Part shown: in pieces, positions 28,723-34,527 of the stretch
Position numbering within the stretch: position 1 is the stretch's first letter
Layout: every line of letters begins with the position of its first letter
NCBI GenBank assembly: GCA_963719415.1
Contig: OY970383.1
Location: 748,100 to 812,099, forward strand
Length of the DNA stretch: 64,000 bases
Source: an uncultured bacterium
Lineage (GTDB): Bacteria; Babelota; Babeliae; Babelales; Vermiphilaceae
Direction of reading: 5' to 3'
Translations under genes and position numbers: made by a program
The notes under the pieces: generated by a model
Databases searched by the model: none
The model's input: the letters and a program-made list of their open reading frames with translations, nothing else
What the model was told of the DNA's origin: nothing

Positions 28723-31443
28723 ATGCTCTTATTTTTGACCAATGCAATCAATATTTTGCTCTCTATAATGGACAGCTGGCAATTTTTATTTGCCCTGTAT
28801 GCTATTTCTTTTTTTTTAAAATTGAGTCTGTTTGTATTTTTAGCATATAAAAAAATACAAAATACAAAAACACCCTATCAAGTATATTATCTCATACTTA
28901 TTGTATTTTCTTCTCTTATATGTGATGTTGCATGGCTACTGACTCCATTCAGCAATCATTTAGATTTCCGAATATACAACACTTTAACTCGCCTAGCATG
29001 GATCTTTTTCATTGTGCTTTATCAGATGCTCTCTCTGTTTATAGAACATCTTACTAATACACAATTTATACTTATTACTCGTCAAAAAATATTTTGCTTT
29101 ATAAGCAGCTCTTTAGCTCTAATATATCTCACAATCACTATCATAGATTTTCATTGCTTAAATTTCCATGAGAAACATTGGATTGAAAAAAAATTACCCC
29201 TTGTGATCATGATTTATTTACTCTTCCCCTTAATGATGACCAGTATAGTTAAGGTAATTCAAAAATTACGAACTCAACACATTCCCCTTTTATTAAAAAA
29301 ACAGATAAGACTTTTAATCCTCGGCATCATTGTACCCTTATGGCTTTCTGATTTTTTTCAAATCACGGCACTTTTAATATCCAACCTTGGTGGATGGGTA
29401 GACAACAATTATACTTTTGCTAGCATCAATAACATTTTGATTACGTATGCAATTTTTTACTCCATACGTAAAATTATAAAACTACGTTTTTTAAATCTTA
29501 ATTATACGATAGAATCTCCGATAAATGTTAACTTTATGACTCATTTTAAAACGATCCTTGGGCGGCTTGGCCATGTGGCTAATACCCAAGAGCTCTCCCT
29601 ATTAGTACAAGAATTTTTTAAAGAATCATTTAAAATTCCGTTTAACAAAGTGACGTTACACGTAAGAACCGATCAGGCGCCAACAGAAACTATGCTCATT
29701 ATAGAGAGTTTTCTAGCCTCTCATTCTCATACCGTAAATAAAGAATTTTATAAACATAAAATTGCTATCTATGATGAGATGGAATTCAATAATTTTTATG
29801 AGCAGAACGAATCTCGCAATATAATCATCCAATTTTTATCGAGCATACAAGCCGATATTTTTTTGCCTATTTATGAAAAAGAAAATTTAACTGCCTACAT
29901 TGTGGTAGAAAAAGAAGCACGAACAACCCACTTTTACTCGCAATCAGAACAAGACGAAATGCTTATTTTCACGAGCTATCTGAGCAATATTATTAATCTT
30001 ATAAAAAATCAACCAATAAGCACTCTCCTAGAACAAGAGAAAATACTACAAGAAGAAATTTATAGAAAACACCAAGAAATAAATCAATATAAAGAGAGCA
30101 TTCGATCATTTATTCGCTCTTCAGACCAACAACAAATCGGTATTGTTTTTTATAAAAATCGCCTCTTTTCTTTCGGCAATCAAGCCGCTCAAGAGATGAT
30201 TAAAATCAATCTTAATGCACAAATAGCACACCCCATAGCGCTGGCATTTAAACAGATAGCAACAAACATAGAACAATATAAAACAGCACAAACATGCATG
30301 GCGACTGATCCCGACGGCGGAACAACCTTTGTCCTTTCTGGGATTCCCAACACAGAAAACAACAATAGCATTATTACTGTTTCGTATCCCGATATCGCTG
30401 ATATTATAAAACAACATATTGATAAATTATATAATCCGTCAGAAAGAGACTATCTTCTCTATCTAGAAACAACAAAATCAGGCACTTTAATTAACCAACT
30501 TATTCCCGGCACAGGGGAAGTTTTGCTTAATTTTAAAATCGAACTCCTTAAAACAGCATTAGGTAAGCAAGCAACCCTTCTACAGATGCCTGAAGAAGAT
30601 TTAGAGGCTACTGTAGAACTATTGCATCATATCAGCTTACGAGACACCCTTCACACCATATCCTTACAAAGTCCCTGCAAAACAGCAGATATTGCGATAA
30701 GTCTTTTTGGCATAAATCCTATATTTAATTTAAATACTTCTGAAGCTCCCTTGCTCGACAAATTACATATGACCGGAACAATTTTTATAAAAAATATTCA
30801 CTTTTTAGACCTAGAAACACAAAAATATTTGGCTGAATACATTAGATTTGGTTTTTACAAAATGTTTAAAAGCGAACATAAAAAAATAAGCTCTGTTCGC
30901 ATTATATGTTCTACTGATCAAAACCTTCATGATCTAGTAAAAGAAGGACTTTTTTCTAAAGACCTATTTAATCAACTAAAAAAGACAGCTCTTGTTATGC
31001 CTTCTCTTACTACTTTATCTGAAGAAGAATGGAAAGCTCTGGCTGATACTTTAATCGAACAAGCTCTTGAATCATCTACTTTTAAATCACTCTTTACTCT
31101 TGCTCCCAAAGACAAACATAGACTTATTTTAAATAGATCTTCAAGTCTATCTCAACTCAAAAAAAGAGTACTTTTACTCATTAATAATAAATCTCAGAAG
31201 CATGAAATAGTTGCTGAAACAGCTACCAATATAATTACAGGAACTGCTTTTAAACCAGCAATAGAAATTAACAACCCTGAATTAATTGAAATATCTAGGC
31301 TTGGAAAGCAGGCACTAAAAGATGAATATGCCATGAGTCTATTATGGCAAACGTTTAAAAATCAAAATCAAATTGCTGCTTTTTTAGGCGTTAATCGTTC
31401 GTCTGTTAATCGAAGATGCAAACTGTACAACCTTAATGCGTAA
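28723..31443 (+). CDS. polytopic membrane protein with GAF-like, PAS-like, degenerate sigma54-type AAA+ and Fis-type HTH modules (paralogue A)
   Basis: About 7 hydrophobic helices in the first ~250 aa. AAA+ colinearity with NtrC-family: [99 protein letters not shown]. C-terminal [21 protein letters not shown]. Confidence 0.65.
   Translation: [906 protein letters not shown]

Positions 31444-34527: not shown

Follow-up and report, generated by a model that had tools for sequence, protein, structure and literature searches.

A tandem pair of putative membrane-anchored regulators with an AAA+-like domain stripped of its ATPase motifs, from a protein family of the Dependentiae

The contig OY970383.1 belongs to an uncultured bacterium of the Vermiphilaceae (GTDB lineage Babelota, Babeliae, Babelales; GenBank assembly GCA_963719415.1). 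In the 64,000-nucleotide (nt) stretch analyzed here (contig positions 748,100 to 812,099; "the window," whose numbering is used below), two adjacent genes on the forward strand encode proteins of 906 and 908 amino acids (aa). Paralog 1 occupies positions 28723 to 31443 (+) and paralog 2 occupies positions 31801 to 34527 (+), exactly as reported in a first-pass annotation made from the sequence alone. Both proteins have the same predicted architecture, i.e., seven transmembrane (TM) helices, a GAF-like domain, a long signaling helix, a PAS-like domain, a pseudo-AAA+ domain, and a Fis-type helix-turn-helix (HTH). The end-to-end alignment described in the annotation was recovered by BLASTP (728/909 identities, 80%; 4 gaps). 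The N-terminal part is the more diverged one, as had been noted (66.5% identity in the TM part, aa 1 to 255), whereas the description of the cytoplasmic half as nearly identical was overstated, the GAF-like, PAS-like, and AAA-like parts being 86 to 87% identical. The corresponding values are 97% for a 30-residue coiled segment, 89% for the HTH, and 41% for the linker at aa 826 to 852; the recognition helix is the same in both proteins. The overall dS of 0.93 and dN/dS of 0.125 indicate that the duplication is not recent and that both copies are under purifying selection.

An intrinsic terminator hairpin followed by six T residues (31494 to 31521, +), the sole match in the window, lies 50 nt past the stop codon of paralog 1. 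A standard terminator scan gave no call at this site, and folding confirmed the hairpin (dG, -20.7 kcal/mol; z, -5.6). Because this strong structure separates the two genes, they are probably separate transcription units with their own promoters.

The N-terminal domain spans aa 1 to 256 of paralog 1 (28723 to 29490, +; paralog 2 equivalent, 31801 to 32565), where the annotation had counted about seven TM helices. Hydropathy analysis revealed six strong peaks and a weaker seventh. A template-free AlphaFold (AF2) model of paralog 1 (pLDDT, 81.5) placed helices at residues 19 to 46, 52 to 76, 82 to 109, 119 to 141, 153 to 184, 189 to 219, and 230 to 256, preceded by a short N-terminal helix. Hydropathy, the positive-inside pattern, and the model all support membrane embedding, and the first two yield an N-out/C-in topology with loops of just 4 to 11 residues. 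No Pfam family, 7TM families included, recurred in this domain among 50 family members at an E value of ≤10. Foldseek searches with the model of residues 1 to 440 returned weak, generic matches to G protein-coupled receptor bundles (E values of 3e-3 or worse; root mean square deviations of 6 to 8 Å), and homology to these receptors was rejected on that ground. An RFLN motif at the juxtamembrane position is invariant in the family, and the linker directly after TM7 (residues 256 to 267), with a pLDDT below 50, is presumably flexible.

The next domain (aa 268 to 430; 29524 to 30012, +; paralog 2, 32599 to 33087) has an alpha/beta topology in the model and had been described as GAF-like. GAF_2 was the sole recurrent Pfam match for this region, found in 12 of the 50 members with a best E value of 0.008, below the cutoff. 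For the window protein itself, single-sequence Pfam searches, including those with sub-regions, gave no GAF match; the family profile of this region matched no PDB sequence, and no GAF domain was present among the top 50 Foldseek matches for the 1-440 model. It is followed by a long helix (aa 431 to 465; 30013 to 30117, +; paralog 2, 33088 to 33192; helix 432 to 463 in the model) carrying a near-invariant 13-residue stretch and then by the domain described as PAS-like (aa 470 to 556; 30130 to 30390, +; paralog 2, 33205 to 33465), which is modeled at residues 473 to 554 as five strands and helices in PAS order. Sub-threshold Pfam matches recur here as well (MEKHLA in 12 of 50 members; PAS_8, PAS_4, or PAS_9 in 8 of 50). 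Single-sequence Pfam searches with sub-regions of the window proteins found no PAS or 7TM families, and the family profile of the PAS-like region again had no match among PDB sequences. Recurrent sub-threshold matches and modeled topology thus agree with the annotation for both blocks, but neither block passed a curated threshold, and the GAF and PAS assignments are weakly supported.

The assignment of the next domain (aa 601 to 831; 30523 to 31215, +; paralog 2, 33598 to 34290) to the AAA+ fold of bacterial enhancer-binding proteins (bEBPs) is much firmer. PF00158 scored 37.0 and 40.7 bits for the two proteins (cutoff, 20.2), with profile positions 92 to 166 of 168 alone being matched, and PF14532 scored 39 to 42 bits (cutoff, 25); above the cutoffs, Pfam thus recognizes no more of the sigma-54 interaction domain than its C-terminal half. 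The best NCBIfam model is NtrX, and the NtrX and DhaR alignments reach the last residues of the protein. A profile built from 114 family members aligned residues 607 to 826 colinearly with residues 137 to 356 of Aquifex NtrC4 (PDB 3dzd; E value, 2.7e-16). In the same search of PDB sequences, it matched NtrC4, NtrC1, and PspF at E values of 1e-16 to 1e-14 and also found LuxO, NtrX, FleQ, FlrC, and VpsR (7v2b). The model contains an AAA+ alpha/beta/alpha core and helical lid at residues 618 to 830, for which Foldseek identified NtrX in the PDB (E value, 2.5e-10), PspF (TM score, 0.70), NtrC1, ZraR, FleQ, and FlrC. Since about 360 columns are aligned, the NtrX match takes in the DNA-binding end. 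The colinearity with the sigma-54 interaction domain that had been read by eye is therefore borne out by Pfam, the family profile, and structure comparison.

The motifs on which bEBPs depend are replaced in this domain. The hidden Markov model (HMM) alignment to NtrC4 3dzd reproduced the motif pairings proposed in the annotation, with LLxMPEEDL facing LITGESGTGKE, GTLFIKNIH facing GTLFLDEVG, FGINPIFG facing FGHEKGAFTGA, and FSKxLFNEL facing FREDLYYRL. To follow these positions across the family, we used 79 loci (i.e., the window and 78 related loci, L001 to L078; about 1.5 Mb), which contain 102 full-length family copies. At the Walker A position (aa 622 to 628; 30586 to 30606, +), paralog 1 has MPEEDLE instead of GESGTGK, and the family columns read L-L-x-[MI]-P-[ED]-[EDQ]-D-L (P623 in 80/102; D626 in 102/102), without a lysine. 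At the Walker B position (aa 688 to 693; 30784 to 30801, +), FIKNIH replaces hhhhDE; the columns read G-T-L-F-I-[QKE]-N, residue 690 being Q in 42, K in 40, and E in 12 copies and N691 being present in 97 of 102. The L1 loop position (aa 661 to 674; 30703 to 30744, +) holds other residues instead of LFGhEKGAFTGA, with G-I-N-P-[IL]-F-G and no threonine where GAFTGA would lie. The arginine-finger segment FR(E)DLYYRL has become F-S-x-x-L-F-x-E-L (S745 in 88/102; E751 in 77/102), and the NVREL of sensor II has become S-L-[QHS]-E-L, its arginine being replaced by Q, H, or S. The annotation had proposed the loss of Walker A and Walker B as well as of GAFTGA, and the profile alignment and the columns of the 102 copies agree with it. 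No intact Walker A was found elsewhere: GxxxxGK[ST] is absent over the whole length of all 102 copies, and the Walker B position is occupied by non-Walker residues.

The replacement of these signatures extends to both members of the tandem pairs and to essentially every one of the 102 copies. Because the substitute residues are themselves conserved, the AAA+-like domain appears to be an old, selected pseudo-enzyme rather than part of a decaying gene. The loss of ATP hydrolysis is strongly implied by these columns, although the pocket may still bind a ligand.

The C terminus is predicted to form a four-helix Fis-type HTH (aa 852 to 906; 31276 to 31440, +; paralog 2, 34360 to 34524; helices within 852 to 901 in the model). 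HTH_8 (PF02954) was below the cutoff for the single sequence (E value, 0.19). With the family HTH profile, the 10 best PDB matches were all Fis or Fis-like proteins (E values of 0.008 to 0.1), followed by the TyrR C-terminal domain (0.17); the Fis and TyrR alignments are colinear and lie at the extreme C terminus. The HTH and its Fis-type matches share the pattern NQxxxAxxLG[VI]NRxx[VL]xR[RK]xKxY, and the 10-residue recognition helix is practically invariant across the family. The Fis-type HTH named in the annotation is thus recovered by the family profile but not significantly by HTH_8 on a single sequence, and, given this resemblance, the domain probably binds DNA.

The window pair belongs to a large and uniform family. 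At least 573 relatives are present in the protein database, the top 120 all being full-length proteins of about 900 aa with 45 to 82% identity. An exhaustive HMM search yielded 396 clusters at 50% identity with E values of ≤1e-30, of which the top 150 were likewise all about 900 aa long. Among species-representative genomes there were 144 matches, and the informative titles were all Dependentiae (TM6) or Babeliales, except for some metagenome-assembled genomes labeled uncultured Pseudomonadota or Proteobacteria. From this distribution, the proteins appear to be a core family across the parasitic phylum Dependentiae, and the window can be assigned to a genome of that phylum. Database labels for its members are generic ("transcriptional regulator with GAF, ATPase, and Fis domain" or "sigma54 specific, Fis family"), and a literature search found no paper mentioning this Dependentiae family. 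Median family identity climbs from the input to the output end of the protein, being 0.30 for the TM domain, 0.42 for the GAF-like domain, 0.50 for the PAS-like domain, 0.55 for the AAA-like domain, 0.66 for the long helix, and 0.72 for the HTH.

Tandem copies are common. Two family open reading frames (ORFs) stand in tandem in 29 of the 79 loci and three do so in 3 loci, a few of the extra ORFs being fragments or frameshifted. The tandem pair is hence not unique to the window but characteristic of a phylum-wide family that is often duplicated. In a neighbor-joining tree, most downstream "B" copies fall into separate, faster-evolving branches, which points to an old A/B paralogy. The window pair, the A/B pair of L001, L037, and the group of L019, L023, and L031 are instead sisters inside the "A" clade, and these probably represent independent later duplications or products of gene conversion.

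The genomic neighborhood is also widely shared. The gene nth (endonuclease III; 27713 to 28327, -) is the divergent neighbor upstream of paralog 1 and holds this position in 67 of the 79 loci, the median gap being 240 bp. Other syntenic genes encode an XerC/D-like recombinase (56 loci; 116 nt downstream), a PBP2/FtsI-like protein (60 loci), ThrS (53 loci), a PhoH-like protein (40 loci), and FtsH (38 loci, within about 5 kb). In the window, SecG and MlaE-MlaF genes are located downstream instead of xerC and PBP2. The same arrangement, a tandem pair followed by SecG-MlaE-MlaF, is found in L080, a contig of a second organism from JGI.

The regions upstream of the two paralogs are 57.5% identical overall and contain three near-perfect patches (28513 to 28530 and 31610 to 31627; 28586 to 28605 and 31681 to 31700; 28682 to 28695 and 31760 to 31773). 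All three had been quoted in the annotation and were found at both sites of each pair, with 90 to 100% identity between the copies. This identity exceeds what neutral decay at a dS of about 0.9 would leave. The orthologous downstream copy in L080 has the patches upstream of it as well, which indicates that they are conserved elements rather than leftovers of the duplication. The distal patch (TATTTGT ... AAAATGTATGGTACAGTA; 28498 to 28530, +; paralog 2, 31595 to 31627), which is also found in L080 and to which TGTGGTAGGAT in both L001 copies is similar, may comprise a TTG -35 element and an extended -10 element (TGnTAnAGT). The second patch, TGTTATTCAATTTCATAAAA (28586 to 28605, +; paralog 2, 31681 to 31700), contains TTTAATTTCATAAAA, which is also present in L080. 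The proximal patch, ACAGTTTAAC-N6-AACTAAAATAGCAA (28666 to 28695, +; paralog 2, 31743 to 31773), is read as a remnant of a phylum-wide leader consisting of a AGTATAAT -10 box, about 13 nt, and a AATAGCAA or GATCAATA motif.

Of 101 family genes, 59 have this leader, with A and B types both represented. The AGTATAAT box lies about 34 nt before the ATG and is followed, about 13 nt further on, by [AG]AGATCAATA[AG] or the variants AATAGCAAT and GCAATA, ending 2 to 5 nt before the ATG. The leaders of the related loci lack a Shine-Dalgarno-like sequence. About 6 kb of leaders contain 21 occurrences of GATCAATA versus 0.043 per kb elsewhere in the 1.5 Mb, an enrichment of about 80-fold, and its rarity elsewhere argues that the motif is gene specific rather than a general translation signal. 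The window copies retain AACTAAAATAGCAA some 35 nt upstream of the ATG, with a degenerate ACAGTYTARC in front of it. Since an invariant recognition helix is paired with a conserved motif in the proteins' own leaders, autoregulation is likely. Putative operator sequences are AAGATCAATAG, TAATAGCAATA, the patches at 28666 to 28695 and 28513 to 28530, and an array at 39140 to 39251 (see below). An Rfam scan of both leaders returned nothing but spurious matches on the terminator hairpin. Short forward ORFs starting in the ATGTATG patch (28516 to 28620 and 31613 to 31732) were rejected as coding; because their frame is conserved neither between the copies nor in L080, the patch is taken as a nucleotide-level element, not a peptide.

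Other features of these leaders were recorded. A perfect palindrome, CGCTAT-GA-ATAGCG (28566 to 28579), is found in the leader of paralog 1 only and overlaps an ATAGC core, and a 16-bp unit, TAAAATAAAGTTAATG, occurs twice upstream of paralog 1 (28613 to 28644) and is absent upstream of paralog 2. In L001, the closest species-representative relative, AATAGCAATAnnATG precedes a 7-codon upstream ORF (MYLTRAK* or MHSTRVT*) that ends 2 to 3 nt before the main ATG of both tandem copies (L001 positions 6860 to 6910 and 9950 to 10003).

The array is an 11-bp tandem repeat of 10.2 copies (39140 to 39251; consensus, TATTGCTATTA). It is located between a dCTP-deaminase-like gene (38505 to 39026, -) and an operon-like series of genes for a GspC-like protein, a secretin (967 aa), a PilM-like protein, and a second secretin (928 aa) (39374 to 48474, +). 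Its reverse complement, TAATAGCAATA, contains AATAGCAA, an 8-mer of both paralog leaders and of other family leaders in the Dependentiae. The array could be a set of binding sites for these regulators, or the match could be a coincidence. Metagenome scans for an array containing AATAGCAA detected no related locus (0 matches in one scan and 42 unrelated single matches in another).

On the basis of these features, it is reasonably probable that the window proteins are membrane-integral, sigma-54-independent one-component DNA-binding regulators, i.e., an extreme form of the "atypical EBP." The 7TM bundle, whose loops are short, would sense a cue in or at the membrane. From there, the signal would pass along the juxtamembrane RFLN motif, the GAF-like domain, the long helix that is nearly invariant, and the PAS-like domain until it reached the bEBP-type AAA+ fold. 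Devoid of ATP hydrolysis and sigma-54 contact, this fold would act as a conformational or oligomerization module that sets the geometry or oligomeric state of the C-terminal HTH on DNA. The output would be operator-specific binding, leading to repression or activation of housekeeping-sigma promoters in the manner of TyrR, NtrX, HupR, and VpsR, and the regulon would include the genes' own leaders. Of housekeeping-sigma promoter features, -10-like boxes were seen upstream of the family genes. The two window paralogs form a lineage-specific duplicate pair with the same DNA-reading helix and diverged sensors; most likely, therefore, they either deliver two inputs to a single output or assemble into a heteromer. 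The first-pass annotation had likewise proposed a bEBP-derived scaffold turned into an ATP-independent transcription factor. The searches for an intact Walker motif elsewhere, for similarity to the sigma-54 interaction domain and to Fis-type HTHs, and for membrane embedding left the scaffold interpretation standing, and the transcription factor role is an inference from sequence that we share.

Several observations weigh against this reading. The E values behind the HTH assignment are marginal (0.008 to 0.2). Lacking dyad symmetry and lying at the position of a ribosome-binding site, the leader motif might serve translation instead of being an operator; its distance from the ATG in the window pair, moreover, is about 35 nt versus about 10 nt in most relatives. 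A polytopic membrane protein acting on chromosomal DNA is mechanistically demanding, and proteolytic release may occur. Finally, the conservation of D626, N691, and H635-H636 suggests that the former nucleotide pocket has a specific role, which the reading does not cover.

Two alternatives retain DNA binding and differ in what it is for or how it is reached. In one, which we regard as unlikely, the protein would be a structural tether with a cell-cycle role, anchoring a chromosomal site or coupling the state of the envelope to chromosome handling, with the DNA motif as the anchoring site. Such a role would suit a core single-locus gene in a phylum-wide housekeeping neighborhood (nth, xerC/D-like, PBP2/FtsI-like, and ftsH), the near-invariant HTH is what one fixed DNA target would give, and an ATPase-dead AAA+ domain could serve as a scaffold. 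However, the presence of SecG-MlaEF in place of xerC and PBP2 downstream in the window means that the linkage is not obligatory, an elaborate sensor chain (7TM, GAF-like, and PAS-like) and repeated duplication accompanied by divergence of the sensor are what signal transducers typically show, and the closest characterized relatives are all transcription regulators. In the other, a latent transcription factor would be held at the membrane by the 7TM domain until a signal leads to cleavage of the juxtamembrane linker, after which the soluble fragment would bind DNA. The flexible-looking linker straight after TM7 and the proximity of ftsH in 38 loci fit this idea, which would also solve the geometry of a polytopic protein reaching DNA. 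We nevertheless consider it rather improbable: the invariant RFLN motif leads on to a series of conserved domains, which suggests conformational coupling more than a tether that could be dispensed with, neither a protease site nor a partner was identified, and the top 150 representatives include no shorter soluble homologs apart from fragments at contig ends.

The remaining two alternatives concern the AAA+ domain itself. If the family still consisted of sigma-54 activators, it would do so with a noncanonical catalytic site or as a regulatory subunit in a mixed ring with an intact bEBP, and the retained fold and C-terminal half of the sigma-54 interaction domain would be explained. A sequence in L080 (positions 290 to 310, between the tandem copies), TGGCACAAAATTTGT, is a 9/10 match to the -24/-12 consensus of sigma-54 promoters. 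As a promoter, this TGGCAC-N5-TTGT was rejected as probably a chance match, the corresponding window segments (near 28560 and 31655) having at least 3 mismatches. With 46 matches versus 37.9 ± 6 expected, the window shows no enrichment of the -24/-12 pattern, and neither it nor the 1.5 Mb of related loci yielded an RpoN box, the RpoN scans covering about 2% of each genome. With five catalytic or contact signatures replaced in essentially all copies, we judge continued sigma-54 activation to be very unlikely and infer that the family is independent of sigma-54 in vivo; a literature search on sigma-54 in the Dependentiae found nothing. That the genes are decaying remnants of duplicated, pseudogenized bEBPs would account for the loss of catalytic motifs, which resembles degeneration. 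Against it stand intact frames of 906 and 908 codons, the low dN/dS, the conservation of the replacement residues D626 and N691, and the uniform length of about 400 clusters at 50% identity, and we give this explanation practically no weight.

Beyond the reading of a sigma-54-independent membrane regulator, we offer a broader proposal, tentatively and with considerable doubt. The family may be the main switch through which the Dependentiae sense their environment or host, a receptor-like 7TM bundle being connected directly to DNA through a fossil AAA+ motor. The former nucleotide pocket (invariant D626, N691, and HH635-636) would have taken on a new function as an allosteric or ligand site. 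Mixed assemblies of the recurrent tandem duplicates would bring several membrane cues together on one conserved operator, which would include the genes' own leaders and perhaps also arrays like the 11-bp AATAGCAA repeat found upstream of the secretin/pilus operon.

Four further features of the window were recorded. Between uvrC and nth (26093 to 27676, -) are three small ORFs of 174, 163, and 145 aa whose N termini are hydrophobic and resemble signal peptides; they have no relative in the 78 related loci and may encode lineage-specific secreted proteins. A 618-aa protein (4741 to 6597, +) contains dCache_2 and sCache_2 sensor domains and no recognized output domain at an E value of ≤0.001. A 246-aa protein (37001 to 37741, -) has a short collagen-like GPKGDKGDRGDG and a sub-threshold match to BclA_C (C1q-like; E value, 3e-5). 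A perfect 46-bp direct repeat of 2.2 copies (TCATAAAAAAAATACAAAAAAATTTACTAAAATCAGGCTCATAATA) is found at 58447 to 58549.

The Dependentiae, whose genomes measure 1 to 2 Mb, live as obligate intracellular parasites of protists. A Dependentiae genome paper names few transcription regulators (merR, yebC, and fmdB; PMC6561590), so a 900-residue, phylum-wide, and often duplicated regulator may be a major link from the cell exterior to gene expression. The family is also a natural test of what the bEBP scaffold can do without ATP, and its invariant recognition helix and conserved leader motif offer an entry point to regulation in a phylum with almost no experimental genetics. To our knowledge, it is the most complete case of a bEBP AAA+ motor turned pseudo-enzyme, all five nucleotide and sigma-54 signatures having been replaced.

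Parts of this architecture are familiar from other systems. The bacterial 7TM receptor modules (7TMR-DISM, 5TMR-LYT, and HisKA_7TM) have a polytopic bundle N-terminal to cytoplasmic signaling domains. The window pair has such an N-terminal bundle, and its short loops suggest sensing within the membrane, but unlike the known 7TM receptor families, it matched no Pfam 7TM model in the 50-member search. In proteins of the ToxR, TcpP, and CadC type, one polypeptide inserted in the membrane carries both the sensor and the DNA-binding domain, and DNA is bound from the membrane; in ToxR-like proteins, a cytoplasmic winged helix at the N terminus is followed by one TM helix and a sensor in the periplasm. 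The window proteins resemble them in placing a membrane sensor and a DNA-binding domain in one polypeptide, whereas they have 7 TM helices joined by minimal loops, around 650 residues in the cytoplasm, and a Fis-type HTH at the C terminus, and the sequences are unrelated. With the canonical bEBPs (NtrC1, NtrC4, PspF, FleQ, FlrC, and DmpR; PF00158), the family shares the AAA+ fold with colinear helices and strands. Traces of this origin include an LIGxS-like entry (LIPGSGE), GTLF, VRII(C/A)(S/A)T, and the C-terminal lid. In contrast to these bEBPs, it has no P-loop, catalytic glutamate, GAFTGA, arginine finger, or sensor II arginine, and with those motifs gone, the window proteins could not be ATP-driven remodelers of the sigma-54 holoenzyme.

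The closest parallel is provided by the atypical EBPs, which are soluble proteins with REC or ACT/PAS N termini. Like the window pair, they have a bEBP-type AAA+ domain followed by a Fis-type HTH and have lost or altered GAFTGA; some have non-consensus Walker motifs (e.g., N-D at Walker B of VpsR), and they repress or activate without sigma-54. One of them, NtrX, is the top match of the window protein in both NCBIfam and Foldseek. Sigma-70-type atypical EBPs without GAFTGA and with non-consensus Walker motifs have been documented (PMC6158489; bioRxiv 10.1101/2023.06.06.543975), including Escherichia coli TyrR, P. putida PhhR, R. capsulatus HupR and NtrC, M. xanthus HsfA, B. abortus NtrX, and V. 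cholerae VpsR (PMC6158489). Most of them still bind ATP, as do TyrR and R. capsulatus NtrC (bioRxiv 10.1101/2023.06.06.543975). The window family differs from every described atypical EBP in having no Walker A lysine, Walker B DE, arginine finger, or sensor II, in its 7TM N terminus that matches no described family, and in being a core gene that appears confined to a single phylum and universal there. The annotation had called the combination unusual and noted its duplication; this holds for the membrane anchoring and the complete motif loss, whereas tandem copies are common in the family and ATPase-impaired, sigma-70-type atypical EBPs are already a recognized class (PMC6158489).

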